Shown one piece after another: positions 3,854 through 39,650 of a stretch of DNA of 64,000 nucleotides (its first letter is position 1; each line of letters begins with the position of its first letter). The notes below the pieces were generated by a model. That model was not told where the DNA came from. It was given only the letters and a program-made list of their open reading frames with translations, and did not search any database. The translations under genes were made by a program, and so were the position numbers. Source of the DNA: Patescibacteria group bacterium (GTDB lineage Bacteria > Krumholzibacteriota > Krumholzibacteriia > Krumholzibacteriales > Krumholzibacteriaceae); assembly GCA_035529435.1 (NCBI GenBank), contig DATKWS010000113.1, positions 13,001-77,000 on the forward strand. Direction: 5' to 3'.

Positions 3854-4660
3854 CTATGACGCGGCGGTACGCCCGGCCCGCTCAAGCCGCATCCGCTCGA
3901 ACAGGGCACCGATGTAATCCCGCCCCTCCACCGCGCGCTCGGGATCGACCTCCAGCTCGAGAATCGGCGGCCGGCGACACTCGAGCAGGAGATTCACCAG
4001 TGTTTCGAAATCCACCGTGCCCCGCCCCGGCGGAAGATGATCGTCGGAGAGGCCGTCATTATCGTGCAGGTGGATCGCCGCGATATCATCCCCGAGGCTG
4101 CGCCACCACCGCCGCACCGCGAGCTGCGAGTAGACGTTCGTGTGTCCCGTATCGAGACAGAACGCGACGGCGCCGGGATCCGGCAGAAGATTCCTCAGGT
4201 GATGGAGTACCTCGGGACGATCGTCCCAGGTATTCTCGAGAGCGATCTGCACGCCCCGGGCCCGCGCATTCTCGACGAGGCGCGGCATCCTGCGGCTCCA
4301 GTTGCCGAACCAGTACCGGCGACCGATACGTGAGTACTGCGGGAGGTACCCGGTATGCATCACCATCAGCGCTCCGCCGAGTGCGGCCGTCACCTCGATC
4401 GCCCGCTCGAGGCAGCGAATCGAGTACCGTGAAATGCCCTCGTCGATACTCGCCACATCGAGACCGAAGAAGGGAGCATGCGAATATATGCGGAATCCCC
4501 TCGTATCGAGCAGGCGTTTCAAACGATTGCAGTCCGAATCGGTGAGACCCATGAGAAAGTCCGTATCGGCCATCCTGACATCAGGTATGAATCCGTCACG
4601 CGATACGAGCTCCATTCTCTCCTCGAGGCTCTCGAACGGTACGCTGACGTAAAACTCCAT
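3854..4660 (-). CDS. sugar phosphate isomerase/epimerase (xylose isomerase-like TIM barrel)
   Basis: 268 aa. Pattern ...ALGGALMVMHTGY...IALEN...HLHDNDG... is typical of the AP endonuclease 2 / xylose isomerase-like fold. Confidence 0.65.
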   Translation of the reverse strand: MEFYVSVPFESLEERMELVSRDGFIPDVRMADTDFLMGLTDSDCNRLKRLLDTRGFRIYSHAPFFGLDVASIDEGISRYSIRCLERAIEVTAALGGALMVMHTGYLPQYSRIGRRYWFGNWSRRMPRLVENARARGVQIALENTWDDRPEVLHHLRNLLPDPGAVAFCLDTGHTNVYSQLAVRRWWRSLGDDIAAIHLHDNDGLSDDHLPPGRGTVDFETLVNLLLECRRPPILELEVDPERAVEGRDYIGALFERMRLERAGRTAAS

Positions 4661-4780
4661 GGCGATCCGGCCATCTTATGGTTTAAAATCGAACACGCGC
4701 ATGCGTACCGCATACGCTGCGGCTGGCGCACGTCCGCCCGTGATCGCACCACACACGCTCGGACCGGCGCACACTCACCC

Positions 4781-4809
4781 TTGACCGCACCGGTAAAGAT
4801 TTATATGCT
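4781..4809 (+). promoter_or_regulatory. sigma70-like promoter candidate for ftcD (TTGACC-N17-TATGCT)
   Basis: TTGACC at 4781-4786, a 17-nt spacer, then TATGCT at 4804-4809. AAGGAG RBS lies about 12 nt before the ATG at 4857. Confidence 0.3.
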
Positions 4810-4856
4810 TCATGCATAGTGCCAGAATTCGACGTCCAAGACAAGGAGTGTTGCGA

Positions 4857-6536
4857 ATGATGAAACTGGTTGAATGCGTCCCCAACTTCAGCGAGGGCCG
4901 CGACACGGCCAAGATCGACCAGATCACGGCCGAGATCGACGCAACCGAGGGCGTCAAGCTGCTCGACGTCGACCCGGGAAAGGACACGAACAGGACGGTT
5001 GTCACCTTTATCGGCACGCCGGACGCCGCCGTGGAAGCCGCATTCAAGGCGATCGCAAAGGCGGCGACGGTCCTCGACATGGCCAGGCACACCGGGGCGC
5101 ACGCACGCATGGGCGCCACCGACGTGTGCCCGTTCGTTCCCGTGGCCGGCGTCACGATGGAAGACTGCGCCGAACTGGCGCGAAAACTGGGCCGGCGCGT
5201 CGGTGAAGAGCTGGGCATCCCGGTCTACCTGTACGAGGAGGCCGCCTCACGCCCGGAACGGAGGAACCTCGCAACGGTGCGTGCGGGCGAGTACGAGGGG
5301 CTCGCCGAACGGTTGAAGGATCCCGAATGGAAGCCCGACTTCGGGCCGGCCACGTTCAATGCGAAAACAGGGGCGACGGCGATCGGCGCGCGCGAGTTCC
5401 TGATCGCGTACAATATCAATCTCAATACGAGGGACCAGGCCGTGGCCCGCGAGATCGCATTCGCCATCCGCGAGAAGGGACGGCTGAAACGTGACGCTTC
5501 GGGGGCGCTGGTGCGCGATGAGAAAGGCAAAAACCTGCGGCAACCGGGTATGTTCAAGGCCTGCAAGGCGGTCGGGTGGTACATGGAGGACTTCGGGCGG
5601 GCCCAGATATCGATCAACCTCGTCAATTACAAGATCACGCCGCCGCACACCGTCTTCGACGAATCGTGCAGGATAGCCACCGAGCTGGGCGCCCGCGTGA
5701 CGGGGAGCGAGCTGGTCGGACTGATCCCGCTCGAGGCGATGCTCCAGGCGGGCAGGCATTACCTGAAAAAACTCGGCAAGACAACGGGCGTGCCGGAATC
5801 CGAGCTGATTCACACGGCGGTTCTCTCGCTCGGTCTCAACGATCTCCACCCGTTCGAGCCGGACAGGAAAATCATCGAGTACCAGTTCCGTGTGCAGCCC
5901 GCACTCGCGGGTATGACGGTGAACGCGTTCGCCGATATCCTCTCGACCGACGCCCCGGCCCCCGGGGGCGGCAGCGTTTCGGCACTCTGCGGCGCGCTGA
6001 GCGGCGCGCTGTCGGCGATGGTCGCGGCCCTCACGCACGGAAAGACGGGGTACGAGAAAAGCTTCGACGAGATGGAGCGGATCGGGATCGAGGGACAGCG
6101 CCTCAAGGACGAATTCCTCGCCGACGTCGACCGTGACACCGATGCGTTCAACCGGGTGATGGATGCGATGCGTCTCCCGAAAAAGACCGACGAGGAACAG
6201 GCGGCGAGGGCCGCGGCGATCGAGGAGGCCACGAGGGAAGCCACCCTGGTGCCATTCGGCGTCCTCAGGCGCACCCGTGAGGCGGCGGAGCTCGCCCGCG
6301 CCGTCGCCGAGTCGGGCAACAGGAACTCGGTGAGCGATGCGGGGGTGGCGGCCTTGAACGCGCGGGCCGCGGCCGAGGGCGCGTATCTCAATGTCAAGAT
6401 CAACCTGCCCGGAATCGGGGATAAAAAATTGAGGAGCGATACCCTCTCGGAGGCAGGGACGATCCGCGCCGAGGTCGTCGCGCACACAGATGAAACGATG
6501 CGCATCGTCGAGCGCACGCTGAACGAACGGAAATAG
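4857..6536 (+). CDS. ftcD: formimidoyltransferase-cyclodeaminase (glutamate formimidoyltransferase + formiminotetrahydrofolate cyclodeaminase)
   Basis: N-terminus MKLVECVPNFSEGR is the hallmark of the formiminotransferase domain. C-terminal half carries the cyclodeaminase GGGSVSALCGALSGAL motif. Start moved to the ATG at 4857, downstream of the track start, because an RBS precedes it. Confidence 0.85.
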   Translation: MMKLVECVPNFSEGRDTAKIDQITAEIDATEGVKLLDVDPGKDTNRTVVTFIGTPDAAVEAAFKAIAKAATVLDMARHTGAHARMGATDVCPFVPVAGVTMEDCAELARKLGRRVGEELGIPVYLYEEAASRPERRNLATVRAGEYEGLAERLKDPEWKPDFGPATFNAKTGATAIGAREFLIAYNINLNTRDQAVAREIAFAIREKGRLKRDASGALVRDEKGKNLRQPGMFKACKAVGWYMEDFGRAQISINLVNYKITPPHTVFDESCRIATELGARVTGSELVGLIPLEAMLQAGRHYLKKLGKTTGVPESELIHTAVLSLGLNDLHPFEPDRKIIEYQFRVQPALAGMTVNAFADILSTDAPAPGGGSVSALCGALSGALSAMVAALTHGKTGYEKSFDEMERIGIEGQRLKDEFLADVDRDTDAFNRVMDAMRLPKKTDEEQAARAAAIEEATREATLVPFGVLRRTREAAELARAVAESGNRNSVSDAGVAALNARAAAEGAYLNVKINLPGIGDKKLRSDTLSEAGTIRAEVVAHTDETMRIVERTLNERK

Positions 6537-6608: not shown

Positions 6609-7883
6609 GTGATCAATCTCGATACGGGAAATATAAATAACTTCCTGCGGGAAGAAGAGCTCGCGGGGATTATGTCGAAAGCCCTCTCGGGTCTCGGATC
6701 GTTGAACCGCCGGGAAGGCGCCGGTTCGGACATGCTCGGCTGGATCGATCTTCCCCGGACACCGCAGCGCGAGCTCGAAGCGATCAACGATGCCGCCAAG
6801 CGCATACAGGACGAGAACGATTGTCTCGTCGTCGTCGGGATAGGGGGTTCGTACCTCGGCGCCCGCGCCGCGATCGAGGCCCTGCGCCGGGATGCACCCT
6901 TTCCGGTACTGTTCGCGGGCAACAATATCTCGCCGGAGTACCATGACCATCTGCTCGCCGCCCTCGAAAACAAGCGGTTCGCGCTCTGCGTGATCTCGAA
7001 GTCGGGAACCACCACCGAACCCGCAATCGCCTTCCGCATTCTGAGGAAACGATTGATAGAGCAATTCGGCCGGGAAGCTTTGGCGAAACGGGTCTTCGCA
7101 GTCACGGATCCCGCGGGCGGCGCGCTGCGTGCCATGGCGGAGACGATGCGGTTCACGAGCTTCGCGATTCCACCCGATGTGGGCGGGCGGTACAGCGTCC
7201 TCTCCCCCGTCGGGCTCCTCCCGATCGCGGTGTCCGGGATCAACATCATGGAGATGATGACCGGCGCGTCTTCGGCGTTGAACCTCTATACGCGCGAAAA
7301 AAGCGGCAACACGGCCCTCCGGTATGCCGCGCGGCGCATTCTCCTGCACGAGAAGGGAATCCAGATCGAGGTCCTCTCGACATTTCACCCCGAGCTCGCG
7401 TTCCTCTGCGAGTGGTGGAAGCAGCTCACCGGCGAATCGGAAGGTAAGGCCGGGAAGGGGCTCTTCCCCGCCTCGACCGTCATGACCACCGACCTCCACT
7501 CGATCGGACAGTACCTGCAGGAGGGAAACAGCCGCCTCCTCGAGACGTTCCTCACCGCCCTGCAACCCCGGAGCGATCTCGTCGTTTCTCCCGACGAGGA
7601 GGATCTCGACGGCCTCAATTTCCTGGCGGGAAAAAACCTCGGCGAGATCAACCAGAAGGCGTTCCAGGGGACGTTCGAGGCACACGCGGCGGGAGGGCGG
7701 CCCGTCATGGCGATCGAGATGCCGTCAGTTACCGCGGGGAGCATCGGACATCTCTTCATTTTCTTCGAGGTCGCCGTGGCCGTATCGGGACGCCTCCTCG
7801 GGATCAACCCGTTCGACCAGCCGGGGGTCGAGGAGTACAAGACGCGCATGTTCAGGCTGCTCGGCAAGCCGGGAGTGTCGTGA
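6609..7883 (+). CDS. pgi: glucose-6-phosphate isomerase
   Basis: VVVGIGGSYLGARA and ISKSGTTTEP motifs of the PGI SIS domains. About 424 aa. Confidence 0.85.
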   Translation: MINLDTGNINNFLREEELAGIMSKALSGLGSLNRREGAGSDMLGWIDLPRTPQRELEAINDAAKRIQDENDCLVVVGIGGSYLGARAAIEALRRDAPFPVLFAGNNISPEYHDHLLAALENKRFALCVISKSGTTTEPAIAFRILRKRLIEQFGREALAKRVFAVTDPAGGALRAMAETMRFTSFAIPPDVGGRYSVLSPVGLLPIAVSGINIMEMMTGASSALNLYTREKSGNTALRYAARRILLHEKGIQIEVLSTFHPELAFLCEWWKQLTGESEGKAGKGLFPASTVMTTDLHSIGQYLQEGNSRLLETFLTALQPRSDLVVSPDEEDLDGLNFLAGKNLGEINQKAFQGTFEAHAAGGRPVMAIEMPSVTAGSIGHLFIFFEVAVAVSGRLLGINPFDQPGVEEYKTRMFRLLGKPGVS

Positions 7884-8929
7884 TGCACGGGCGAGTCCCC
7901 GGCGGGCTGAAATCATTCGTCACCGTGCTGCTCGCGCTGCCGCTCGCACTCCTGTATGGCTGTGAATCCCAGGCCCCTTACACGGCCGACACATTCGTCA
8001 TGGGAACGCAGGCCTGGGTGACACTGTACGGCTACGGCGAAAAGGAGGCGGAACCGATCGCCGCGGAAGCGCTCCGCGAACTGCACCGCATCGAGGCGGT
8101 CATGAGCACGTGGCGCCCGGCGAGCGAGATCTCACGCCTGAACGGCGCCGCCGACGGCACGATGCGGACCGTTTCACGCGAGCTCTTCACCGTGGTCGAC
8201 AGCGCCTTCTACTATGCCGCCGTGACCGGCGGCGCCTTCGACATCACGGCACGGCCGCTCGTCAGACTCTGGGGATTTCAGGGAGGCGAGCCGCGGCTCC
8301 CGTCCGAGGACGAGATCGCCGGCGCCCTCGAGCGGGTCGGGTACGGGCGCGTTGCGCTCGATGCTTCGATGCCCGGCATCGCGCTCCCCGCAGGAATGGA
8401 GCTCGACCTCGCCGGTATCGCCAAGGGATACGCCGTCGACCGGTGCGTGGCGCTGCTCGCCGAGCGCGGCGTCACGAGCGCGCTCGTCAATCTCGGCGGC
8501 AACATATACGCGCTCGGCGCGCCGCCGGGAAAGCGCGGATGGACGATCGGCATACGCGATCCCCATGGGGGGCTGAGCACCGTCGGCGCCCTCACGCTGA
8601 AGGATGCGGCCGTGGCGACCTCGGGAAACTACGAGAACTTCGTCGAGATCGAGGGAGCACGCTACGGTCATATCATCGATCCGCACACGGGACGAACCGT
8701 CGATCACGTTCTCAGCGTAACGGTCGTCGCCCCGACCGCACTGGCCTCCGACGCCCTCTCGACCGGCCTGTTCGTCCTCGGGGGCGGGCGGGGAAGCGAT
8801 CTCGTCCGGCGGCTGTCGGGCGTCAGGGCCCTCTTCGCCGAGCCGGCGGACGGACGGATCATGTACCGTACGGCAGGTGATTTCGGCGACGCGCTCGAGC
8901 TCGATGGAGAGATCGTCCAGGCACAGTAA
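7880..8929 (+). CDS. apbE: FAD:protein FMN transferase (ApbE family lipoprotein)
   Basis: Signal peptide with lipobox (LLYGC). The motifs GGAFDITARPLV, DLAGIAKGYAVD and ALVNLGGNI are ApbE hallmarks. Start codon overlaps the pgi stop. Confidence 0.8.
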   Translation: MMHGRVPGGLKSFVTVLLALPLALLYGCESQAPYTADTFVMGTQAWVTLYGYGEKEAEPIAAEALRELHRIEAVMSTWRPASEISRLNGAADGTMRTVSRELFTVVDSAFYYAAVTGGAFDITARPLVRLWGFQGGEPRLPSEDEIAGALERVGYGRVALDASMPGIALPAGMELDLAGIAKGYAVDRCVALLAERGVTSALVNLGGNIYALGAPPGKRGWTIGIRDPHGGLSTVGALTLKDAAVATSGNYENFVEIEGARYGHIIDPHTGRTVDHVLSVTVVAPTALASDALSTGLFVLGGGRGSDLVRRLSGVRALFAEPADGRIMYRTAGDFGDALELDGEIVQAQ

Positions 8930-9270
8930 GTCACGCACCACTCGCTGTTCGAATGAGATGGCCGCGTATGGTTTTCACACCGTGGCTCGATTCGGCGCGG
9001 CATTCAAACGGCGGGCACACGGCATGCCGTATAATTTTATATATATTTTTCTTGACCGGTATTTCGGGGCCTTCTCCGGTGAAGCGCCGGCCTCATCTTT
9101 CAGGGCATCCCGAAGCCCTTCGCGGCCTCACGGCACGCCGATAACCGGCACCCCCGGTAATTTTATCAAAATGTGCCGCGTTTGAGCGTTCAGTGCGATC
9201 GTGCGCCGCGTAAATATCGCATGGTATACTGGAGGCGGTTGCACGATGGGGGGATGACGGGAGGTGTGAG

Positions 9271-10686
9271 ATGGCCGCGAAGTCGGCTCAAGTACATTCA
9301 CTGAAAACATCGATTCGCTCCAAGTCTGAGAAGCGTCTCTCCGACGGCGATCTGCTCGCCCGGCTCGAGAAGAGCCGCGGAACGGAGCGCGCGTTGCAGC
9401 GCAGGATCGTGCTCGATCTCGCCGAGGTCGAACGGCGCAGGCTCTATTTGCCGAGAGGATACGGCTCGCTCTTCGAGTTCTGCACCGATTATTTACACTA
9501 TTCTCGCTCCTCGGCGGGACGGCGGATCAGCGCCGCACGGTGCATCGCGCTCTTTCCCCGGATGGCAGAGATGTTCGAGCGGGGGGAATGTGATCTCACC
9601 GTGCTCGCGGCGATCGCCGGGATCGTGACGAAGGAGAACTGCGCGGAGATCGTATCGTGGCTCAGGGGGAAGACGCTCAGGGAGGTCGAGGCATTCGCCC
9701 AGCGGCGGCAGCCGGGTCGAGCGGTCAGGGATCAGGTCCGGCAGATATATGTCATGAGCGTAAAGCAGGATACGAAGATTGATGGAGATCCGCCGTCTTC
9801 GAATGAATCACCGACGCCGGATACGGCGCCCCGGAACGGCGCTGAGCCCCCCGCGGCGGATACGAAGAATGCCGATCCCGGCGAGGTTGCAGAATTGCAT
9901 CACTATCTCGGATTTACTCCCAGCGCTGGGACTAAAACGGCGCAACTGGTTAATAACACGTCAGTTAAAAATCGAGGGGTGCGCTCCGGTTCCGGCGACG
10001 GCTCCAGCAGCGCCACGGCCTCCATGAGTGCTTCACCGGTGGAGCGCGTCGTTGTCGATCGGAAGTTCAAGCTCCAGTTCGCCGTGGATCCGGCGTTCAT
10101 GGTGAAGTTCAAGAGAGTAAGATCTCTTCTTTCTACTAAGTACCCAAATTTAAGTAACTTCGAGATGCTCTTCGATATCCTCATGACCGAGTACCTCGAT
10201 CGCCATAGCCCGGAAAGGCGGCTCGAAAGGCGGAACGCCCGCAAAAAACGCGCTGCGGGAAAAAAGAATACATCGGGGAGCGCAGCGACTCGGGACCCGG
10301 AACATGCTACACCGAATCGAAACGGCGAGCCGGTCCCATTACACGATACGCACCGAAAAGAAGCGGTGGAACCCGCCTGCGGGAGCCCATCCGATGACGT
10401 GTGTCGGGGAGAGAACCCGGCTCCCGCGAAGCGAAACCGCTACATCCCACCGGCGGTCAGGGACGAGGTGTTCGCACGTGACGACGGCAGGTGCACGTTC
10501 GTCAGCGACAACGGCAAACGGTGCAACTCTTTATGGAACCTTCAGATAGATCATATCATTCCATTCGCGAAGGGCGGAGATAGCTCTCCCGGCAATCTGA
10601 GGCTCCTCTGCGCACGGCATAATATTTCAGAGGCCGAACGGGAATACGGAGCGGAGCTCATGAAAAAATTCCGCCAGCGAGAATAA
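9271..10686 (+). CDS. DUF222-domain HNH endonuclease (13E12-repeat-like selfish element protein)
   Basis: N-terminal DUF222-like region (LDLAEVERRRLYLPRGYGSLFEFCTDYL). C-terminal HNH motif (CTFVSDNGKRC...IDHIIPFAKGG...N...CARHN). GGGAGG RBS before the ATG. An internal ~300-bp low-GC patch lies at 9890-10200. Confidence 0.75.
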   Translation: MAAKSAQVHSLKTSIRSKSEKRLSDGDLLARLEKSRGTERALQRRIVLDLAEVERRRLYLPRGYGSLFEFCTDYLHYSRSSAGRRISAARCIALFPRMAEMFERGECDLTVLAAIAGIVTKENCAEIVSWLRGKTLREVEAFAQRRQPGRAVRDQVRQIYVMSVKQDTKIDGDPPSSNESPTPDTAPRNGAEPPAADTKNADPGEVAELHHYLGFTPSAGTKTAQLVNNTSVKNRGVRSGSGDGSSSATASMSASPVERVVVDRKFKLQFAVDPAFMVKFKRVRSLLSTKYPNLSNFEMLFDILMTEYLDRHSPERRLERRNARKKRAAGKKNTSGSAATRDPEHATPNRNGEPVPLHDTHRKEAVEPACGSPSDDVCRGENPAPAKRNRYIPPAVRDEVFARDDGRCTFVSDNGKRCNSLWNLQIDHIIPFAKGGDSSPGNLRLLCARHNISEAEREYGAELMKKFRQRE

Positions 10687-10757
10687 AAACAGGTTATCCA
10701 GCGTGTGGCAATGCTCATTACATCGAGCATATGACAAGCGACGATCCAAGACTTTTA

Positions 10758-10790
10758 TTGACATGATAATTGCTTTTATAATAATTGGAA
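10758..10790 (+). promoter_or_regulatory. AT-rich promoter-like region upstream of the DUF488 gene (TTGACA ... TATAAT)
   Basis: TTGACA at 10758-10763 and TATAAT at 10777-10782. The spacer is only 13 nt, with an alternative ATAATT at 17 nt. Confidence 0.2.
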
Positions 10791-10818
10791 GGAGCCAATT
10801 ATCTTTCAGGAAAAAGCT

Positions 10819-11277
10819 GTGGCAAAAGAAGCTAAAATAAGAAACAGCCTGTATACGATCGGCTATGAAGGCAGAAACATGGCTGATTTTATTTCATGCT
10901 TGAAGTCGTCGAATATATCCATTGTGCTCGACGTGCGAGAAACTCCGATTTCGCGCAAGAAGGGATTCTCAAAGTCTGCTCTCAAGACCGAGTTGGAGAA
11001 AGAAGGACTCGCTTATTTTCACATGCGAGAGCTGGGCAGCCCGAAAGATATGAGAAGGAAGCTGTACGAAGATCAGGACTATGATTTTTTCTTTCGGTCT
11101 TTTATCGCATATCTGAAAAGTAAACAAAGCCATCTTGAAAAGGCCTATGCTCTTGCGTTCAAATCCACGTGCTGTTTGATGTGCTACGAGAAACAGGCGG
11201 AAAAATGCCATCGATCCGTAGTAGCTCAAAAAATCGCCGAATGTGACGGAAGGGGACTCTCCGTCATTCATATATAA
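10819..11277 (+). CDS. DUF488 family protein
   Basis: 152 aa with GTG start. N-terminal LYTIGYEG...DVRE.P.S pattern and overall architecture match DUF488 (YeaO-like). Lies inside the low-GC island. Confidence 0.6.
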   Translation: MAKEAKIRNSLYTIGYEGRNMADFISCLKSSNISIVLDVRETPISRKKGFSKSALKTELEKEGLAYFHMRELGSPKDMRRKLYEDQDYDFFFRSFIAYLKSKQSHLEKAYALAFKSTCCLMCYEKQAEKCHRSVVAQKIAECDGRGLSVIHI

Positions 11278-11635
11278 CCCCTGGCTATTGTGCAAAACGG
11301 CTCAGCTCAGCTTTTTTAATCGTAATAAGGATAAAACAGATTCTCCTGCAAGAATGAACCTCTCTGCAATGGGCACAAATTACCCATTATCGATTGGGAA
11401 ATCGGTCAAGCCTATCGAAGCTGGAGATATAGATATCAAAGCAAGGATCTTCTATTAGCCAAGATCAGAGAAAAATGGCTTTTAATGATGTGTTCCGACA
11501 AGAAGGATACTCATTTCTTTGTTGGAAACATGCAGCGATTCAGAAAGAATTTCATGGTCCTCGGCGTGTTCTATCCTCCAAAAATATAAAATCTCCATAC
11601 AGCGTTTGAATATAATCCGCATCGCATATCTACTG

Positions 11636-14600
11636 CTAAGATTTAAGTATTATATGTAGTAGATTTTCTTCGACTTTCGGATACAGGGCATCGATTTCCT
11701 TCTGGATTTCGATGGTCCTCTCGAGCGCGGTGACGATGCGGCAGTAGGTCTTTATATCGTCCATGCCGAGCTGCCGCTCGCGGCGATCCTTGAGCCACTT
11801 CTCGCAGACCTGATACCCGCCGATCTGATATTCCCAGACATCCCGCCGAACCGGAGCGAAGTACTGTGTCTTGTTGATATAAACACGTTCTTCTTGTGGA
11901 TCATACCGGAATCCCGTGTTCTTGTTCTTTGCAACGCTATTGTCGCCTTTTCCTTCGAATTGGGCTGAAGGTGTATCGAGCTCTGGCGAATTGAGCAGAT
12001 GCAGGGAGGTCAGTCTCATCCCCAAAGCAGCAAGTATCCGAAAGAGCTTAGTGTCCGTCGTGAACGGCAAGCGTGGGAAATCCATCCGCAGAAACTCAGA
12101 GTATTTCGTGCGGTAGGCTGGGGAGTAGAGGACTGCGTATATGTAGTTAAAAATCTCCTCGGGCGCTGGTTCCCCACCGTATGCCTGCGCCAGCGCTGCG
12201 ACGAACTTTGGATTCAGGTTCAGCTTGCGTTCGGACGTCTCGTATTGCGAGAAAAGGGCGCTGCGGTCGGCGGTGGGGTAAAGGTACAACGGAAAGAGAA
12301 AAGCATTATTGGAAGTCTTCGGCGAAATCAGGATTTTCTCCGAAATATGTTGCGTCACGAGAGCGTGCCTAAAGGACTCTCCTTTTGTTAATCGTGATGT
12401 AATGAGCGCCAGATTTTCCCCCGCAAGCATGTGGCGCATGACTTTCGGACGGGGCATGCAGATGAAACCGCGCGACCGCCCAGTATAATAAGTGAAACGT
12501 TTGTCGAAAGGACGGTAGAGGATCGGGACAATCTTATCCTCGGTCGGTCCGGACTCCAACAAGTCCTTTTGTGCTAGTGCCACCTTCCAATCTCGTGAAT
12601 CTTTGCTTAGACCATATCCTTGACGAGCCAATTCAGGGTCCATCCTCGAAAAGACAGTCACTGTTTTCCATAGCTCTTTCGCAGACCAATGGATTGTCAA
12701 AGCGTCACGTGCTGTGAATAGACCTACAACATTCACAGGAAATATCTCGGGTACGCACTTGAACCGTCGGTACATGGTTCCGAGCGTATGGTCATGCGGC
12801 ACAAACAAATAAAATGGTTGCACAGGCTTTAAATCTGTCCACTCGGTTTGCTTCAGTTGATGCATGTTAAGCCAGTCATATTTTCTGTCTCTTAATCCCC
12901 ATAGGTCAACATTCCTAACAACGGCATCATTCTTCTCTTTACAGCCATCCTTGATGAAAAAGGCAATAGCTACCCCCTGCCGAATGTCGAAGACGTTTTG
13001 ATCATGGCTGCCGTCCGGGCAGCTTTCTTTTTTAAGTGAGTTTCCGTGTAGATTAAGTATGTAAATTTCGTCGAATGTTCGCATAAGGCTTTGGCGCATG
13101 CCTCGGAAGGTTGGGTTATCTAGATATGAATGATTCGTAATCATTCCAAAAACCCCGCGACCTGCCTGCTCGATCTTCCACTGAGCAAATCGCAGGAACT
13201 TCACATAGTCGTCTTGAAGCCCCCTTGGATTCCTTTCGCCGAGTGGTTCTCCGTCCACCTGCTTATAGTCGTCTATTAGGCCTGTTATCCATTTCCCTCT
13301 ATTAGATGAATCATACGAATACGGTGGATTCCCCAGCACAACGAGTATCTTCTGCTCCTTCTTGACCTCCCCGGCGAGGTGGGATTCCTCGGCAAGCGAG
13401 GAGAAACCGGGAAGGCGGCTCTGCTCGAGCTCCTCCATATCAAGCGTATTGGTCAGGTAGAACTTCACGCGCTCGTCATCGGCGAGACGGTGACCGAGTT
13501 CTTCGAGAAAAAACGACATTTTCAAGTGCCCAACGGCGTACGGCGCCATCATCAGCTCAAAAGCATAGAAGTTTTTCAGGATATGATTGCGTATAAATTC
13601 CTCCCGCCCGCCGGAGCCGTACTTTGCCTCGAATTCTTTGACCGCCTCCTGGGCGGCGCGCGCGACAAAGGTCATCGTGCCCGCCGCGGGATCGAGCAAT
13701 GTGACCCCCTCGGATGCGAGCCCGTCGGGCATATCGAATTTTTCTTTGAGAATATGATTCAGCGATCGGACGATATATGACACAACCGGTTCAGGAGTGT
13801 AATAGACCCCCCGGCGCTCGCGTTCCTCGGGATCGTACCGGGCCAGGAATGTCTCGTAGAAATGAACGATCGGATCGCTTCCCTTCCCCTCGTGATAGTA
13901 GCGATCGAGGAGTCCGGGAGCATCCGCGACTGCCAGGACCCCGGAGATATCATCCACGATCCATTCGAGCTCGGCGGGCGGCTCTTCCAGTGAAATGAAC
14001 CGGAACACATCACGCAGAATGCCGATGGTATGCGGTATCTTGTAAAATGCCGCGCGGCGGTTGAATCCATCCCCCGAGCGCGTCCGCGCCGCAAAGAGCC
14101 CATAGGTAATCGTCTGCGCGTAGAGATCGGCGAAGTCGTGCGGCGTGAGCTCACCGATCAGGTACGTCCGGAACGTCTCGTAGAATCCGAGCAGCTTTCC
14201 CTCCGAACCCGCCTGCTCCTCGATGAGCTGCTGCTCGGTGACATCGCGCAGGAAGCGCGTGCGTTTCGCCAGCTCCACGGCGAGCGTTTCGGCGTTGTAC
14301 ATTTGCGGTAGTGAAAAATCGAGAAAATGCTCGAGCAATGCCCAAAGCTCGTCGGGCTTCTCGATCGGCGGGGTAGTGCGAACCTGGTTCAGAATCATGG
14401 GCCGCGCCGCCAGCACCGATTCGACGAGCTCCCCGTTTCGGTACAGCCGGAACTCGAGAAAATTGGTGAGGATCAGGTTGGCGAACGTGCCGAGGTAGCG
14501 CTGAAGCTGCCCGGACCGCTCGATTTCGCCCAGCCGCTCCTCCGTCGGTTTCTTGGCTTCGATATAGCCGATGATCCGGTCCGTGCCGTTCCAGATGCGG

Positions 14601-14842
14601 AAATCCGGGTTCCCCGCCTCGGTTGGTTTCGGCAGCGTCGTCACGTGGACATCCGTGCGGCCCGTGGCCTTCGCGATCTCTTCGAGGAGTTCACCGAGCG
14701 ATCCGTAGAAGCTCTCCTCCCGCGCGTCGCCCCTGAGGGCGACATCGGAGAGGCCTTCGAGATACTTTTTGAATATCGCTTTTTTGCCCATGCTGATTAA
14801 GCCCCATAAAAAATTTTCGTGTATTGGGTAATAATACCGCAA
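11636..14842 (-). CDS. single-polypeptide Type IIL/IIG restriction-modification enzyme, MmeI-like (PD-ExK endonuclease + gamma-class N6-adenine methyltransferase + target recognition domain)
   Basis: 1068 aa. N-terminal PD...ExK nuclease motif (NPDFRIW...IIGYIEAKKP). SAM-binding motif I (LLDPAAGTMTF). Catalytic motif IV (LGNPPY). Long C-terminal specificity region. GC is far lower than in the flanking genes. Confidence 0.7.
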   Translation of the reverse strand: MRYYYPIHENFLWGLISMGKKAIFKKYLEGLSDVALRGDAREESFYGSLGELLEEIAKATGRTDVHVTTLPKPTEAGNPDFRIWNGTDRIIGYIEAKKPTEERLGEIERSGQLQRYLGTFANLILTNFLEFRLYRNGELVESVLAARPMILNQVRTTPPIEKPDELWALLEHFLDFSLPQMYNAETLAVELAKRTRFLRDVTEQQLIEEQAGSEGKLLGFYETFRTYLIGELTPHDFADLYAQTITYGLFAARTRSGDGFNRRAAFYKIPHTIGILRDVFRFISLEEPPAELEWIVDDISGVLAVADAPGLLDRYYHEGKGSDPIVHFYETFLARYDPEERERRGVYYTPEPVVSYIVRSLNHILKEKFDMPDGLASEGVTLLDPAAGTMTFVARAAQEAVKEFEAKYGSGGREEFIRNHILKNFYAFELMMAPYAVGHLKMSFFLEELGHRLADDERVKFYLTNTLDMEELEQSRLPGFSSLAEESHLAGEVKKEQKILVVLGNPPYSYDSSNRGKWITGLIDDYKQVDGEPLGERNPRGLQDDYVKFLRFAQWKIEQAGRGVFGMITNHSYLDNPTFRGMRQSLMRTFDEIYILNLHGNSLKKESCPDGSHDQNVFDIRQGVAIAFFIKDGCKEKNDAVVRNVDLWGLRDRKYDWLNMHQLKQTEWTDLKPVQPFYLFVPHDHTLGTMYRRFKCVPEIFPVNVVGLFTARDALTIHWSAKELWKTVTVFSRMDPELARQGYGLSKDSRDWKVALAQKDLLESGPTEDKIVPILYRPFDKRFTYYTGRSRGFICMPRPKVMRHMLAGENLALITSRLTKGESFRHALVTQHISEKILISPKTSNNAFLFPLYLYPTADRSALFSQYETSERKLNLNPKFVAALAQAYGGEPAPEEIFNYIYAVLYSPAYRTKYSEFLRMDFPRLPFTTDTKLFRILAALGMRLTSLHLLNSPELDTPSAQFEGKGDNSVAKNKNTGFRYDPQEERVYINKTQYFAPVRRDVWEYQIGGYQVCEKWLKDRRERQLGMDDIKTYCRIVTALERTIEIQKEIDALYPKVEENLLHIILKS

Positions 14843-14878
14843 GAACAGGATATCCGAAAACCATATTTTGTGCAGTCT

Positions 14879-15586
14879 TTATTCCGTTTCCGCGGGAGGC
14901 TCGTCATCGAGCGCTCCGGTGAACCAGTTCCGGTGGATCACGCAGCTCGCGCAGTCGTGTTCCTTGCGGATCAGCGGGGTGCGCCCGGCACGCTCGGCGA
15001 GCCTGATCTCCGCCTGGTTCATGAGACCGAGCAGCACGCCCAGCACGATGAAGGCGCCGGGCGGGAGGATCATGAGGAGCAGCGGCAGGTACGACGGTCC
15101 CATGATCGACACGTTGAAGATCGTGCCGTTTCCGAGGAGTTCCCTGATCGCGCCGATCAAGACGAGCGACACGGTGAATCCGAGCCCCATCCCGAGGCCG
15201 TCGATCATTGAAAGGCCGATCGAGTTCTTCGAGGCGAACGCCTCGGCGCGGCCGAGAATGATGCAGTTCACCACGATCAGCGGGATGAACAGCCCGAGGC
15301 TCTTGTGGAGTGCGTGGAAGTAGCCGTTCATCACGAGGTCGACGATCGTGACGAAGGTCGCGATCGTCACGATGAAGGCGGGAATGCGGACCTTTTTCGG
15401 TATGACTCCCCTGAGGCCCGCGATCGCGGAGTTGGAACAGACGAGCACGAAGGTCGCGGCGAGCCCCATCCCGATGCCGTTCTCGGCGGTCGTCGTGACG
15501 GCCAGGGTCGGGCAGAGGCCGAGGACGAGACGGAAGATCGGATTCTCGCTCCAGAGTCCCTTTATCAACTCCTTGCCTGCGCTCAT
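14879..15586 (-). CDS. rnfE: Rnf electron transport complex subunit E
   Basis: Polytopic membrane protein with MGLAATFVLVCSN and LFIPLIVVNCII motifs of the RnfE/NqrD family. Last gene of the rnfABCDGE block. Confidence 0.85.
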   Translation of the reverse strand: MSAGKELIKGLWSENPIFRLVLGLCPTLAVTTTAENGIGMGLAATFVLVCSNSAIAGLRGVIPKKVRIPAFIVTIATFVTIVDLVMNGYFHALHKSLGLFIPLIVVNCIILGRAEAFASKNSIGLSMIDGLGMGLGFTVSLVLIGAIRELLGNGTIFNVSIMGPSYLPLLLMILPPGAFIVLGVLLGLMNQAEIRLAERAGRTPLIRKEHDCASCVIHRNWFTGALDDEPPAETE

Positions 15587-15589
15587 ACG

Positions 15590-16285
15590 TTACTCCTTGG
15601 AGTCGCCCTTCCCGCCTGACGTGGTGTCGGCGGATCCACCGGTGCCCGCGCCGTCCGTTTCACACGGATCGATCCCTTGCATGGCGGGCGGTGAAATCTC
15701 GTCCGCGCTCCCGGGACCGAGTATCTCGGTCCGGTGCCCGGCGAAGAACTCGAGACCCCGCGCGACGGCGTGGGTCACCGCACGCGAGGAGATCGTCGCC
15801 CCCGTGATCTGCTTGAAGGTGCCGCCGTCCTTGACGACATCCCACGTTTCCGGGTTGGAGAAACTTGCGCCCTTATAGTTGGCCCTGAACTCCTCCGTCT
15901 CGATCTTGGCGCCGAGGCCGGGGGTTTCGCGGTGCTGGAGTATCTGTATCCCCTGCACGACACCGGCCGTATCGACGCCCACCATGATCTCGATCTCTCC
16001 GGAATAGCCGTTGGGAGCGACGACGGGGAACGCGACACCCACGATCGCACCGTCTTTCCGCCCCCGGTAGAATATCACATCGGCCTCGCCGTTCTTTACA
16101 ACCTTCGTATCCTTGTCGGGATCGTTGTCGTACGGCGGAAGCACCGAGCGCACGGCGCTCATCTTCTCTTCCTTGAGGGCATTCTGTATCGGTTCGGCCG
16201 TTTTCTGGCTGACGAAGGCGAGGACCCCCGCCGAAACGGCGGCGATGACCGTCAGCACCAGGCACAGCCGGAATATTTCCTTCAT
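15590..16285 (-). CDS. rnfG: Rnf complex subunit G (FMN-binding)
   Basis: N-terminal TM anchor, then an FMN_bind-like region (GATISSRAV, flavinylation Ser/Thr context). Position in the rnf operon. Confidence 0.8.
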   Translation of the reverse strand: MKEIFRLCLVLTVIAAVSAGVLAFVSQKTAEPIQNALKEEKMSAVRSVLPPYDNDPDKDTKVVKNGEADVIFYRGRKDGAIVGVAFPVVAPNGYSGEIEIMVGVDTAGVVQGIQILQHRETPGLGAKIETEEFRANYKGASFSNPETWDVVKDGGTFKQITGATISSRAVTHAVARGLEFFAGHRTEILGPGSADEISPPAMQGIDPCETDGAGTGGSADTTSGGKGDSKE

Positions 16286-21546: not shown

Positions 21547-22449
21547 TCACAATCCACGCATCCATTCGTTTCGGAGAAATTGCTCCGGTCTCTCCAGCGC
21601 CAGCGCGACCTCCGCGAGGAGCCGTTCCCTGTCCTTCATGAGGGTCCCCGCCAGGGCAAGATAATTGGAGGCATGGTTGCTCCGGAAGATGCACCGCTCC
21701 GTCTCGAGGCCCTCGATCATCCGGCCGAGCTCCCTGCAGTTGTCGAACGGCGTGCTGAACGAGAAATGCGGCGGCATTGCGCGCGCGTATCGCTCCCCGT
21801 GCGGGCCGGGCATCAGCGTCAGCGCCGAGAGATAGCGGGGCTGGATGCCGTTCACGAGGCGGGCCGTCGCTGCGGCGTGGCGCTCCAGTCCGCCCCTGCC
21901 GGCGAGTCCCAGAATCACGGTGACGGAGAGCTTCATCCCCGCCTCGTGCGCCCGCCGGCACCCCTCGATCATCTCCGCGGGGGTGGCCCCCTTGCCGATC
22001 CGCGCGAGGAGATCGGGATCTCCCGTTTCGACTCCGTAGTAGAGAATCGAGAGCCCCTTCTCACGGAGCCCGCGCAATCCGGCCGCCGTCTTCGAGAGGA
22101 GGTTCTGCGGCGTCGCGTACGCGGCGACCCTCTGCAGGCGGGGGAACGATTGACCGATATATTCGAGAATACGTTCGAGTTTTTCGACCGAAAGCACGAG
22201 CGCATCCCCATCGGCGAGAAAGATCCGCCGCGTATCGGGCCGGAGCCGCGCGGCCGCGTCTATATCGGCCCGCAGCTCGTCCCACGGTTTTGTCCTGAAA
22301 CGCTTCCCCTTGTACATGTAGCAGAAGCGGCACCCGTTGTGGGAGCAGCCGATCGTCGCCTGGAGTATCAGTGAACGCGCCTCGCTGGGCGGACGGTAGA
22401 CCGGTTCGTCGTAGTGCAGCATCGTTTCGATTCCATTCCGGCGTTCCAC
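21547..22449 (-). CDS. radical SAM domain protein (unusual Cx4Cx2C motif)
   Basis: 300 aa. N-terminal GCSHNGCRFCY Cys triad. Glycine-rich SAM-binding stretch ILYYGVETGDPDLL. Partial TIM-barrel radical SAM layout. Confidence 0.65.
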   Translation of the reverse strand: MERRNGIETMLHYDEPVYRPPSEARSLILQATIGCSHNGCRFCYMYKGKRFRTKPWDELRADIDAAARLRPDTRRIFLADGDALVLSVEKLERILEYIGQSFPRLQRVAAYATPQNLLSKTAAGLRGLREKGLSILYYGVETGDPDLLARIGKGATPAEMIEGCRRAHEAGMKLSVTVILGLAGRGGLERHAAATARLVNGIQPRYLSALTLMPGPHGERYARAMPPHFSFSTPFDNCRELGRMIEGLETERCIFRSNHASNYLALAGTLMKDRERLLAEVALALERPEQFLRNEWMRGL

Positions 22450-22816
22450 GAATGACGCTCGTGATTCCCTCCACGCGGACGGTGAGAAAACAGCCGGTGA
22501 TTATTCCATCGTCCGATTCCCGTACACGCGGTTCATTATAATCGCGTCGCTTACGCATGACAACAACGAAGTTCTTTATTTGTATACGGATGCGGGCGTC
22601 CGCCGATTACCATGCTATTGCACCGCGCCATATTCCGGATAGATCATAATTATTTATATATACAGGCCCGATACCGGTTAACCGAGATAATTTATAATAA
22701 ATCTTTGCACGGATCATGTTTTGATGGTATAGTTCCGACGAGATGTACTTCGTGTTCATGACACCGGTTTCTTCTCAATATGTATAGCATTCGACTTTAC
22801 GGGAAAGGAGCAGGAC

Positions 22817-23278
22817 ATGCAACGGATACAGAAAAACAGGATCGGGTATGCAGGCATGATACTCGTGCAATCCCTATTTCTGCGAGAGGGTATCACCTGC
22901 GAGACGGCCGAGGGGATCATCGATCTCGAAGTACAACTGACCAAGCCGAAACGGAAATTCGGGGTTCTCGTCGTCACCAATTTAAGGCCGAAGAAGGCGG
23001 GCGGCAAAGGCAAGGAGGCCCTCGACTGGTGGATACCGATCAAGAACGAGGCCGACTTTATCGTCTGTGTCGACCTCAGCACCCTGCGGGTGTGGATCTT
23101 CGGCGCGGCGGAGATGTCCAGGTTCGCGCAACAGCGTTCGAAGAACAAATTGCATTTCTACATGTACACCGATAACGCAGTCGCCCTTCGCGGTAAAAAG
23201 GCGTCGAAATTCGATTACGAATTCGAGAGTTACCGCCTCGAGAACAGAATTTACCGGGGAGTCTTCGACAGGAAGTAG
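22817..23278 (+). CDS. hypothetical protein (possible degenerate restriction-endonuclease-like fold)
   Basis: 153-aa ORF in a locally AT-rich patch with an AGGAGCAGG RBS before the ATG. N-terminal GYAGMILVQSLFLREG...AEGIIDLEV resembles the first half of Hjc/YraN-type PD-(D/E)xK folds. No clear ExK is present. Confidence 0.4.
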   Translation: MQRIQKNRIGYAGMILVQSLFLREGITCETAEGIIDLEVQLTKPKRKFGVLVVTNLRPKKAGGKGKEALDWWIPIKNEADFIVCVDLSTLRVWIFGAAEMSRFAQQRSKNKLHFYMYTDNAVALRGKKASKFDYEFESYRLENRIYRGVFDRK

Positions 23279-23346
23279 AGCGGGGTATCGTGCCGCTCCG
23301 GCGGCCGGTTCACCGGCGTGGTGTTCCTATCCGGCATGATACGATC

Positions 23347-39268: not shown

Positions 39269-39650
39269 TGCGAAGCCTCCTTTCCCGACGTCACGGGGCA
39301 CATTACCATTGTACCCAATAGCGGTCAAGTTAGTTTCAATCTGTATCCACTGTGCGAAACGCCGCGGATCGCGTTCCAACGGGAACTTTCCCGCCGCTCG
39401 AACGTAACATACAGTGAGCAAACAAGTAAAGTTCTGCCCCGGTGCGGGCGGGAATACTGAGGGGATACAGGAACAGAATATGCCACTCCTTTCAATCGAA
39501 GAACGATATCGAGAAAGGTTGTTTGATGTGTGTTGACCTTGTAAAAAACGCCGATAACGGTTATACTATGAAAGAGTGGGGATTTCCGACGCCCCGGCGC
39601 GGAAAAACCACATCTGACGGAAAACGCAAAACCACCCCTGCTGAGAAGGA

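Follow-up and report, generated by a model that had tools for sequence, protein, structure and literature searches.

Positions 8930-14878 of the 64,000-nt stretch of DNA analysed here (the window) are, in our assessment, very probably a lineage-specific patchwork. Its three modules would differ in age and be functionally independent, and they would have been built up and eroded in place rather than brought in by one integrase-mediated insertion. The modules are a restriction-modification (RM) enzyme, a decayed gene pair around a DUF488 protein, and an HNH endonuclease gene with its own leader.

Results

The region spans 5.9 kb and lies where the rnfABCDGE operon and the ftcD-pgi-apbE cluster face each other tail to tail. 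Pfam matches give the gene order FTCD, PGI, ApbE, HNH, DUF488 and a 1051-aa REase-MTase followed by rnfE-G-D-C-B-A, which confirms the gene content listed in the initial annotation, and the cargo is of the type claimed there, defence and selfish-element genes. The left flank is conserved: apbE (7880-8929, forward strand; Pfam ApbE E 1.8e-87) is the final gene of its cluster, convergent with the rnf operon, in a synteny kept in about 20 Krumholzibacteriota MAGs. On the right, rnfE (14879-15586, reverse strand; Pfam Rnf-Nqr E 1e-67) is the conserved last gene of rnfABCDGE; its product is 82-93% identical to RnfE of Krumholzibacteriota, and RnfB and RnfA were also identified in the operon. That the interval between them is accessory, as had been proposed, is borne out by empty sites. 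In at least 12 related Krumholzibacteriota genomes no more than about 255 nt separate rnfE from apbE, and L011, the closest outgroup on a neighbour-joining tree of RnfC+D+E in which the window and L082 are sisters, likewise has an empty site. Across the phylum, the rnfE-apbE gap contains different genes in different lineages.

Relatives that do carry the region speak to its age. L082 reads rnfE-GH5-RM-DUF488 stub-HNH pseudogene, with the same RM-DUF488-HNH order as the window and a nucleotide identity of 78.6% in the RM gene and approximately 80% in rnf. In L056 the same RM gene follows rnfE, and the gene together with its upstream region is 85.5% identical at the nucleotide level. An independent JGI assembly (L001) has the same junctions as the window, with 12 mismatches in 5051 nt. 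Because L082 has the RM-DUF488-HNH region in common with the window, and L056 has RM in the same position, the region is older than the splits from both, and all of it would have existed already in the ancestor from which this genome, L056 and L082 descend. A recent insertion does not agree with these data, as the RM gene has diverged from its L082 counterpart to the same extent as rnf; the same genes at the same place in relatives, which the initial annotation had named as evidence against an acquired island, were in part found, in L082 and L056. Later remodelling would have separated rnfE from the RM gene by a BNR gene (L056) or a GH5 gene (L082), deleted DUF488 and M19B and turned the HNH gene into a pseudogene in L082, and exchanged the central target-recognition segment of the RM enzyme between L082 and this lineage.

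Base composition is heterogeneous. Against a GC background of 0.616 ± 0.041 outside the interval (500-nt windows), strongly low GC is limited to 10687-13351 (0.37-0.49) and an 87-nt spacer at 14792-14878 (0.368), and values of 0.68-0.70 are reached only locally, in apbE. By part, GC is 0.371 in the intergenic stretch IG2, 0.438 in the DUF488 gene, 0.399 in IG3 and 0.488 in the C-terminal half of the RM gene; the N-terminal half of the RM gene (13352-14791; 0.589) and the HNH gene (0.588) both lie less than one standard deviation from background. Each of the three cargo genes nevertheless has a lower GC3 (HNH 0.68, RM 0.64, DUF488 0.50) than the flanking genes (0.81-0.89). A GC content of about 50% from 10690 to 14850, as originally reported, is thus correct only in part; the sharp drop described at the rnfE boundary has no counterpart in the computed GC profile, which shows no abrupt step there, and GC values from 0.37 to 0.59 with uneven GC3 do not describe one compositionally uniform island. 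Three stretches had also been called AT-rich and non-coding. The one at 8935-9270 has an ordinary GC of 0.57, its right-hand 230 nt being the conserved leader of the HNH gene; that at 10690-10818 is indeed AT-rich and intergenic but additionally bears a near-consensus sigma-70-like promoter; and that at 11280-11635 is not simply non-coding, as it contains a truncated PDC-M19B gene. Some segments, such as DUF488 and the intergenic regions, could be later arrivals or replacements than the N-terminal half of the RM gene. Low GC has here survived approximately 20% nucleotide divergence, which is unexpected under efficient amelioration.

Marks of mobility were sought as well. ARAGORN found no tRNA gene in the 64-kb window, and there is no integrase or recombinase among the four coding features that fill the interval, in agreement with the earlier observation that neither tRNA nor integrase is visible. 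Flanking direct repeats, suggested as a possible trace of insertion, were absent from the interval boundaries, as were terminal inverted repeats, and the region has no Rfam match. By the marks used for integrative islands, the combination of integrase, att target and direct repeats is missing, and absence from relatives together with atypical composition is present.

The largest module is the RM gene (11636-14791, reverse strand), whose 1051-aa product is, as judged from PDB, PADLOC and Pfam matches, an intact, one-chain enzyme of Type IIL and of the DrdV kind. Its reading frame is intact, and an identical 1051-aa gene is called in L001. The start is ATG 14791, conserved among homologues and used in the same JGI gene call; a TTG start at 14842 found no support from either, and the gap to the rnfE stop is 87 nt rather than the 37 nt first given. 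The domain order is N-terminal PD-(D/E)XK nuclease, helical connector, gamma-class N6-adenine methyltransferase (MTase) and Type_ISP_C target-recognition domain (TRD). The nuclease motif D63...E78-A-K80 aligns with the PD...ESK segment of DrdV, and the MTase motifs LDPAAGTMTF and GNPPYS align with the corresponding DrdV motifs I and IV; Pfam N6_Mtase and Eco57I match as well. The protein also matches PADLOC REase_MTase_IIG (E 6.4e-260), Pfam Type_ISP_C (E 6.6e-90 over aa 699-1047) and the PDB entry of DrdV, 7LO5 (E 5.3e-42 over aa 8-941), and Pfam detects no helicase, AAA or ATPase domain in the protein. At E ≤ 0.01, only DrdV, LlaBIII and LlaGI are matched in the PDB. Membership of the MmeI family was rejected, as no MmeI Pfam domain appears at E ≤ 0.001 and MmeI and BpuSI are absent from the PDB matches; the description 'MmeI-like' is right as to the Type IIL class, to which MmeI belongs, but the lineage is DrdV- or Type-ISP-like. 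A Type ISP enzyme was also rejected, since the alignment to LlaBIII and LlaGI begins only at query aa 308 (chain residues 845 and 681, respectively), the ATPase is missing and the protein has 1051 aa.

The region upstream of the RM gene (14792-14878, reverse strand) is conserved with L056 and L082 (alignment A5) and in the window directly abuts the rnfE stop. Homology with L056 extends to 14853, a possible -10 element (TATTAT) lies at 14836-14831, and no terminator-like site was found between rnfE and the RM gene. The RM gene probably has its own promoter within these conserved 87 nt, and read-through from rnf is possible in addition. By homology with DrdV, whose mechanism has been described (bioRxiv 10.1101/2021.01.06.425610), the enzyme would methylate one adenine in an asymmetric site of host DNA and would cut unmodified DNA at a fixed distance once several bound sites come together.

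Identity ranks against L082 delimit an exchanged central TRD segment at aa 600-850 (12242-12994, reverse strand). Among 119 RM homologues, the L082 protein ranks 1st over aa 1-590 (87% identity), 116th over aa 600-775, 103rd over aa 776-850 (45%) and 2nd over aa 851-1051. The window segment at aa 776-850 is closest to enzymes of unrelated genomes, with L083 and L084 being 84-96% identical over aa 776-825, and the window and L082 have no nucleotide similarity across 12186-12399. By these comparisons, the central segment is not orthologous to that of L082 and has been swapped relative to it. It would have been replaced by recombination with another family member, either in this lineage or in L082, and the 80-90% identical MTase core of the family would offer ready homology arms for such an exchange. 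Because this segment was exchanged, the recognition sequence in this lineage most likely differs from that of its sister L082. A further, unlikely proposal is that TRD-cassette exchange at a fixed chromosomal locus would be the way in which this very uniform Type IIL subfamily changes specificity in nature.

The second module lies next to the HNH gene; immediately 3′ of the HNH stop, some 44 nt are still alike in L082 (77% identity). The AT-rich stretch IG2 (10687-10818, forward strand) supplies the predicted promoter of the DUF488 gene, TTGACA-16-AATAAT at 10758-10785 (11 of 12 consensus matches in a promoter scan), and its ribosome-binding site, GGAAGGAG. The gene itself (10819-11277, forward strand) encodes 152 aa matching PADLOC PDC-M19A (E 3.7e-39) and Pfam DUF488 (E 3.6e-30) and DUF488-N3a (E 7e-8); the protein is full length compared with its nearest stand-alone homologues, which have 146-152 aa and 54-74% identity and come from many phyla. 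In L082 only a 33-aa C-terminal stub is retained. Downstream lies the truncated PDC-M19B gene (11335-11589, forward strand; PADLOC PDC-M19B E 1.1e-14, profile positions 163-241 of 252), consisting of about 84 C-terminal codons and the stop, with approximately the N-terminal two thirds missing and in-frame stops just upstream. This remnant has 43% identity with aa 178-256 of a plasmid-encoded Streptomyces protein (265 aa) whose gene adjoins a DUF488 gene, and the same pairing occurs on a Massilia plasmid. A complete PDC-M19 pair, with A and B adjacent and intact, is thus not found here, and since M19B is reduced to its C-terminal third, the pair is probably non-functional as a system. In this decayed pair the DUF488 component retains an intact reading frame and a strong predicted promoter.

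The third module, the HNH unit (approximately 9040-10700, 1.65 kb), opens with a non-coding leader (9040-9270, forward strand) that is common to six loci with differing flanking genes (nhmmer E 8e-52). An A/T-rich run is followed by box A (CTTGACCGGTATTT, 9051-9064), a hairpin with a T-run (9144-9168), the extended -10-like box C (TGGTATACT, 9222-9230) and box D (GGTTGCACGATGGGGGGATGACGGGAGGTG, 9237-9267), which includes a Shine-Dalgarno sequence. Box A and box C are 169-171 nt apart in all six loci, across a spacer of variable sequence; no ORF is conserved in the leader among them, and the consensus RNA fold is weak. The spacer 3′ of apbE (8930-9039) is not common to the other HNH-family loci, similarity among which begins only at about 9040 (alignments A1-A3), and it may be a remnant of the original apbE intergenic spacer.

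The HNH gene (9271-10686, forward strand; Pfam HNH E 3.5e-6) is intact and encodes 471 aa, with an N-terminal helical ParB/KorB-like (DUF222-like) DNA-binding domain, a disordered linker and a C-terminal HNH nuclease domain in which the catalytic His and Asn and the Cys ligands are present. An AF2 model (mean pLDDT 73.9) gives fold matches to HNH and ParB/KorB. The initial label 'HNH-DUF222' stands for the HNH domain; DUF222 is borderline, at 23.7 bits against a cut-off of 24.4, and the model makes the N-domain ParB/KorB-like in structure. Homologues P0123, P0131 and P0188 carry PF02720, and PADLOC gives the gene a weak match to a Type II REase model. The L082 ortholog is a pseudogene with two in-frame stops. 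Only one copy of the family lies within the 64-kb window; at least two further copies occur in the assembly containing L056 and two in JGI sample 3300067986, and most members sit on contigs of 1-3 kb. In the related assembly the family is multicopy, as contig sizes also suggest. In five further contexts, members are single genes amid unrelated housekeeping genes. By its behaviour, the unit would be a selfish repeated element of the REP13E12/DUF222 type that reached the neighbourhood of the defence genes independently of them.

Discussion

The GC dip invites a simpler explanation, a single low-GC island recently acquired from an AT-richer donor as one block between apbE and rnfE, and the absence of the region from many relatives, the lowered GC3 of all three cargo genes and the mixture of defence and selfish-element cargo are all in line with it. 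We nevertheless consider it very unlikely. On the genomes compared, it appears largely refuted by L082 and L056, where the same genes occupy the same place with an RM divergence close to that of rnf; GC varies from 0.37 to 0.59 inside the supposed block, which has no direct repeats, integrase or tRNA; and the parts occur apart, HNH-family members standing alone in unrelated contexts, never with this RM gene, and RM homologues occurring elsewhere without DUF488 or HNH. Such separate distribution also makes it extremely improbable that HNH, DUF488 and RM work together as a single multi-gene defence system: DUF488 and HNH are both missing from four RM homologue contexts, and RM and DUF488 from the five HNH-family contexts. 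The adjacency of the three genes here and their same order in L082, the matches of DUF488 to defence-candidate models and the weak REase match of the HNH gene would suit cooperation, but DUF488 has its conserved partner in M19B, of which the window has only a truncated copy, and the L082 RM gene is intact while DUF488 and HNH decay.

Loss rather than gain, with the region ancestral to the phylum and deleted from the empty-site genomes, has a very slim chance of being correct. The junction is variable in many lineages, with different genes, and decay is visible both in L082 and in the M19B remnant of the window. Yet RM, DUF488 and HNH are confined to the subclade of the window, L082 and L056, and the nearest outgroups, L011, L002 and L019, and deeper clades are empty or hold unrelated housekeeping genes, so that many independent clean losses would be needed; the atypical GC3 of the cargo for this genome, and an RM family that keeps about 70% identity over many phyla, as is typical of horizontal spread, also argue for gain. 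A joining of a low-GC fragment of another organism into the contig during assembly or binning is scarcely credible, even for a metagenome-assembled contig whose deposited taxonomic label is apparently wrong and whose composition changes abruptly at about 10690. L001 spans rnfG-rnfE-RM-IG3-DUF488 at 99.76% identity, two further MAGs from other samples have an orthologous RM gene after rnfE, RM and the HNH gene are linked in L082 as well, and GC shifts within a single intact, uninterrupted frame of 1051 aa.

Our preferred reading, a patchwork assembled and eroded in place, makes of this GC-dip 'island' beside a core respiratory operon a long-standing accumulation of defence and selfish modules, independent of one another and now eroding, and a worked example of how the single-insertion reading of a GC dip can mislead. 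The region documents how, in nature, orthologous loci of a DrdV-type Type IIL enzyme would have come to differ by TRD replacement, which is relevant to specificity change of such enzymes and to mining them for new recognition sites. The uncharacterised PDC-M19 (DUF488) pair is represented by a further, degraded example, and the conserved leader of the HNH gene family stands out as a subject worth study. We also entertain, as an unlikely proposal, that the HNH unit stands for a self-propagating element of an undescribed kind, present in Krumholzibacteriota and neighbouring phyla, in which a sequence-specific DNA binder fused to the nuclease would travel with a leader serving as recognition and autoregulation platform or as RNA partner and taking part in copying, and would seed permissive gaps between operons like the present one. 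In other respects this is an ordinary accessory region, and no part of it overturns current understanding.

Comparison with known systems

With classical integrative genomic and defence islands the region shares presence/absence polymorphism, atypical composition and a cargo of defence and selfish genes. It differs in being 5.9 kb long, old and mosaic, without integrase, tRNA target or flanking direct repeats, and in its location in the gap between convergent operons.

The closest characterised relative of the RM enzyme is DrdV from Deinococcus wulumuqiensis (PDB 7LO5/7LVV), likewise a single chain of approximately 1030-1050 aa with the same domain order, no translocase domain, and conserved PD...ExK, DPAxGTxTF and NPPY motifs, although sequence similarity between the two is remote. 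The window enzyme is one of a very large subfamily that is tightly conserved from phylum to phylum (68-75% identity) and that NCBI labels 'type ISP restriction/modification enzyme'. Type ISP enzymes themselves (LlaBIII, LlaGI) have homologous MTase and TRD parts (E 1e-34 to 8e-36 over aa 308-958), but the window enzyme lacks their RecA-like ATPase/translocase of about 500 aa and Mrr-type nuclease arrangement and has 1051 rather than 1400-1580 aa. The MmeI family (MmeI and the related BpuSI) resembles it as bifunctional single chains with one-strand methylation and TRD-alterable specificity, whereas its TRD is of the Type_ISP_C kind.

PDC-M19 is a PADLOC candidate system only, without demonstrated function, and comprises a DUF488 protein (A), often with an N-terminal HTH, and a protein of approximately 265-275 aa (B). 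The DUF488 protein of the window matches A and the adjoining fragment matches B, as in the adjacent pairs of the Streptomyces and Massilia plasmids; here, however, A lacks the HTH part of the profile and B is cut to its last 84 or so codons. A and B are convergent on the two plasmids examined, whereas the DUF488 gene and the M19B remnant are co-directional in the window, so that one has to assume that the pair was rearranged or was originally built differently.

The HNH unit differs from REP13E12/DUF222-HNH elements of Mycobacterium and other Actinomycetota in phylum, in a protein that falls just under the DUF222 threshold and in its conserved 230-nt leader with fixed box spacing. To our knowledge, REP13E12 is not reported to have such a leader, and in neither case is mobility established. 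Both consist of a solitary gene with a long helical N-domain and a C-terminal HNH domain, and the window family would, like REP13E12, be a repeated, assembly-breaking one, REP13E12/HNH/DUF222 having been reported as a repetitive element (PMC10589994); some members of the window family, moreover, carry a precomputed Pfam DUF222 match.

Results

The flagged interval at 8930-14878 lies between two convergent gene sets whose earlier assignments were borne out by Pfam: FTCD, PGI and ApbE on the plus strand, and rnfA-B-C-D-G-E, with rnfE last, on the minus strand. RnfE is 74-84% identical to that of about 20 Krumholzibacteriota and Latescibacterota metagenome-assembled genomes, throughout which rnfABCDGE is followed by convergent apbE-pgi-ftcD, and 90-93% identical to that of two nearer ones. 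The empty-site comparison proposed in the initial annotation was positive, rnfE standing directly beside apbE (gap of at most ~255 nt) in at least 12 of these ~20 genomes (L002, L003, L006, L008, L009, L010, L011, L012, L013, L015, L019 and L022). In a neighbour-joining tree of RnfC+D+E, the window is sister to the related genome L082 and the nearest outgroup, L011, has an empty site; a gain on the branch leading to the window, L082 and a further relative, L056, is what parsimony favours.

In other lineages the junction is occupied by unrelated genes (L004, L005, L014, L016, ~10700-11870; L018, L020, L021), among them a ~164-aa membrane protein and a Mrp/ApbC-like ATPase with a Cys/Met-metabolism PLP enzyme (lyase), which makes the rnfE-apbE gap a generally variable, permissive spot. 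The HNH and DUF488 proteins of the window are identical to P0121 and P0241, deposited at NCBI under "Patescibacteria group bacterium", a label that looks wrong, as synteny and RnfE identity (82-93%) place the sequence in Krumholzibacteriota. A metagenome scan with ApbE returned distant ApbE paralogues (best 51% identity among the matches listed) and no closer relatives, and an exact-protein look-up with ApbE gave no record.

The content of the gap is not recent. In L056 (RnfE 93% aa identity), the restriction-modification (RM) gene and ~60 nt upstream are present at 85.5% nt identity, separated from rnfE by a 2.1-kb segment with a BNR/Sortilin-type propeller gene (489-2432). L082 (RnfE 90% aa; rnf ~80% nt) has the order rnfE, GH5 mannosidase gene (4294-5898), RM (78.6% nt identity), a 33-aa C-terminal DUF488 stub and an HNH homologue interrupted by two in-frame stops (9415-10680). 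L082 and the window share 77% identity over the last HNH codons and the ~44 nt that follow, which puts their HNH genes in orthologous positions. Since L082 shares RM, DUF488 and HNH, the set was in place before the ~20% nt divergence of the lineages, which argues against a recent insertion; each lineage has gained or lost pieces since the split of the window, L056 and L082. An assembly chimera is argued against by L001, an independent JGI metagenome contig with the matching arrangement rnfG-rnfE-RM-IG3-DUF488 (IG3 being the DUF488-RM intergenic region) and 12 mismatches over 5051 nt.

Compositionally, the interval is heterogeneous. GC is 0.608 over the 64-kb window and 0.616 ± 0.041 in 500-nt windows outside the interval, within which it runs from 0.569 in the apbE-HNH spacer (8930-9270) and 0.588 in the HNH gene (9271-10686) to 0.371 in IG2 (the HNH-DUF488 intergenic region, 10687-10818), 0.438 in DUF488 (10819-11277), 0.399 in IG3 (11278-11635), 0.488 in the RM C-terminal half (11636-13351), 0.589 in its N-terminal half (13352-14791) and 0.368 in the RM-rnfE spacer (14792-14878). 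Thus the dip claimed for 10.69-14.85 kb is real, yet restricted to 10.7-13.35 kb, and the GC profile has no sharp step at rnfE, where a sharp boundary had been described. GC3 sets all three cargo genes apart (HNH 0.68, RM 0.64, DUF488 0.50 vs 0.81-0.89 in flanking genes).

Elsewhere in the window, a second low-GC patch at 22400-24330 (GC 0.46 at 22400-23000) carries a 153-aa ORF (22817-23278, plus strand), for which a Pfam search gave no match, and a 346-aa ORF of the PD-(D/E)XK nuclease superfamily (23290-24330, plus strand; PF12705, E 3e-16), and could represent a further small insertion of accessory or defence genes. A mild dip (0.51) at 39000-39500 coincides with the intergenic region upstream of a membrane-protein ORF (38600-39421, minus strand), assigned by eye as MotA/TolQ/ExbB-like, and looks like an ordinary promoter region.

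The RM gene (11636-14791, minus strand) starts at ATG 14791 and encodes 1051 aa, a start conserved in homologues and also called in an independent assembly; it lies 87 nt, and not 37 nt, from the rnfE stop. The ~90 nt upstream are conserved in all three genomes (window, L056, L082), hold a TAnTAT -10-like element and, in the window, adjoin the rnfE stop directly, with no terminator-like site between rnfE and RM. Judged from the sequence, RM would have its own promoter, with possible read-through from rnf. Pfam identified N6_Mtase, Eco57I and a full Type_ISP_C in the protein and no MmeI domains, and the PADLOC Type IIG model matched at E 6e-260. The best PDB-sequence match was DrdV (7LO5; E 5e-42, aa 8-941), followed by LlaBIII and LlaGI, whose matches begin only at aa 308. 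DrdV, a Type IIL enzyme of 1029 aa, is built from nuclease, connector, MTase and target-recognition domain (TRD), the latter two akin to their Type ISP counterparts; it methylates a single strand and, after several sites have been brought together, cleaves at a fixed distance (bioRxiv 10.1101/2021.01.06.425610). The alignment keeps the nuclease PD...E-x-K (D63, E78, K80), motif I (LDPAAGTMTF) and motif IV (GNPPYS), and the enzyme is probably active. The DrdV match, Type_ISP_C and the missing MmeI domains place it in the same class as MmeI, yet in a DrdV/ISP-like lineage, and not in the MmeI-like family to which it had been assigned.

The RM subfamily is very large and uniform, with 68-75% full-length identity across many phyla. 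The gene in the window is mosaic. When segment identities to the window protein were ranked among 119 homologues, the L082 ortholog P0003 came first over aa 1-590 (87%) and second over aa 851-1051 (69%), but 116th over aa 600-675 (47%) and aa 676-775 (64%) and 103rd over aa 776-850 (45%). Around aa 776-850, enzymes from two unrelated genomes (L083, L084) reach 84-96% identity to the window protein in sliding 50-aa windows, the best homologue over the whole segment reaching 81%. This drop in mid-protein, together with the loss of nt similarity to L082 across 12186-12399, indicates an exchange of the central TRD in which either lineage, the window's or that of L082, could have been the recipient. 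Along RM, GC3 is 0.75-0.85 over aa 1-230 and drops to 0.45-0.55 over aa 480-800. L082 and L056 share this trend, whereas in unrelated homologues GC stays host-like along the whole gene.

Measured against its closest homologues (146-152 aa, at most 74% identity), DUF488 is complete at 152 aa; it has a near-consensus promoter upstream and matches PADLOC PDC-M19A, one half of a candidate defence pair; we found no functional study of DUF488 in the literature. The partner was recovered in part from IG3, which had been described as non-coding. Pfam gave no match on IG3 translations, and tblastn against plasmids matched the C-terminus of ~265-275-aa hypothetical proteins, which adjoin DUF488 genes in both plasmids examined (Streptomyces, Massilia) and are PDC-M19B (E 1e-56 to 1e-59); a third match (Pseudomonas) overlaps a DUF488 annotation. 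Of the 252 positions of the M19B profile, the remnant at 11335-11589 covers 163-241 (E 1e-14); its product and the Streptomyces protein (aa 178-256) share 43% identity. M19B is truncated, with stops immediately upstream and no space for the missing ~170 codons; the PDC-M19 module is thus a relic, eroded further in L082. Homologues of RM elsewhere stand alone beside toxin-antitoxin, AbiU2 or DUF5677 genes, with neither DUF488 nor HNH, and DUF488 was rejected as a conserved partner of the RM family, being absent from four RM homologue contexts.

The HNH gene has a Pfam HNH domain, with DUF222 just under threshold, and literature searches on DUF222 found no functional study. Its AF2 model (44 sequences, mean pLDDT 73.9) has a confident N-domain (aa 21-165), middle element and HNH domain joined by disordered linkers, the former two being helical. 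Homologues are 33-66% identical and mostly on 1-3 kb contigs. Two copies in the L056 assembly (beside clpB and beside ssb/ahpC) and two more in one JGI sample each stand alone among housekeeping genes. All six family loci with DNA compared share a leader (window 9040-9270; L167 1886-2122; L170 2418-2654; L168 5688-5919; L172 306-540; L173 2392-2627), which consists of an A/T-rich run, box A (CTTGACnGGTATTT), a hairpin with T-run, the extended -10-like box C (TGKTATAMT), box D (GGTTGCGCGATGGGGGGAnGACGGGAGGT, including the Shine-Dalgarno) and the start codon. Boxes A and C are 169-171 nt apart in six of six loci; the C-D part is 67-78% conserved, against 57-72% nt for the coding sequence, and the spacer between boxes is only 32-55% identical. 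No small ORF is conserved in the leader, which has stops in all frames, and we do not claim a structured RNA, given the weak RNAalifold energy over six leaders (-10.2 kcal/mol) and a positive, penalising covariation term. Further copies were found neither in the window nor in 2 Mb of loci beyond known HNH-family carriers, among which L169 duplicates L168 and L171 is partial. Viral contigs gave no match, and box A, considered as a possible general promoter motif, shows no enrichment in the window. A 21-nt direct repeat upstream of the gene (9020-9040, CGGCATGCCGTATAATTTTAT; 9146-9166, CGGCACCCCCGGTAATTTTAT; 76% identical) has its first copy just before the conserved leader and its second inside it.

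Discussion

The interval is a genuine accessory region of an ordinary sort. Its outline had been drawn correctly in the initial annotation, which erred on uniformity, recency, boundary sharpness and enzyme family. The comparisons establish its phylogenetic distribution, its shared ancestry with L082 and L056 and the independence of its three modules.

As had been noted, there is no tRNA (or tmRNA) in the whole window (ARAGORN for tRNA), and Pfam found no integrase in the interval, which also holds no transposase or att-like repeat; Rfam gave no match over 8000-16000 at E <= 1. The suggested check for flanking repeats returned only short chance-level direct or inverted matches within 8800-15000, none pairing both boundaries. 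The best-supported origin is stepwise accretion with in-place turnover: pieces would have been added, by illegitimate recombination or by recombination driven by homology, to a gap between operons arranged tail to tail, where an insertion would do no harm, and later reworked in place by insertions, deletions, pseudogenisation and TRD exchange.

Only the natural TRD swap and the HNH leader merit more attention. The ends of the HNH unit show neither terminal inverted repeats nor target duplications. We read it as a self-contained, putatively mobile and selfish repeated unit like the REP13E12/DUF222 repeated element (PMC10589994). Two copies are decayed, that in L167 (2117-3400) by a frameshift ahead of the HNH motif and that in L082 by its in-frame stops, which is consistent with weak selection on a selfish gene. 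Throughout, the components are of known kinds, to which this region adds fresh members.
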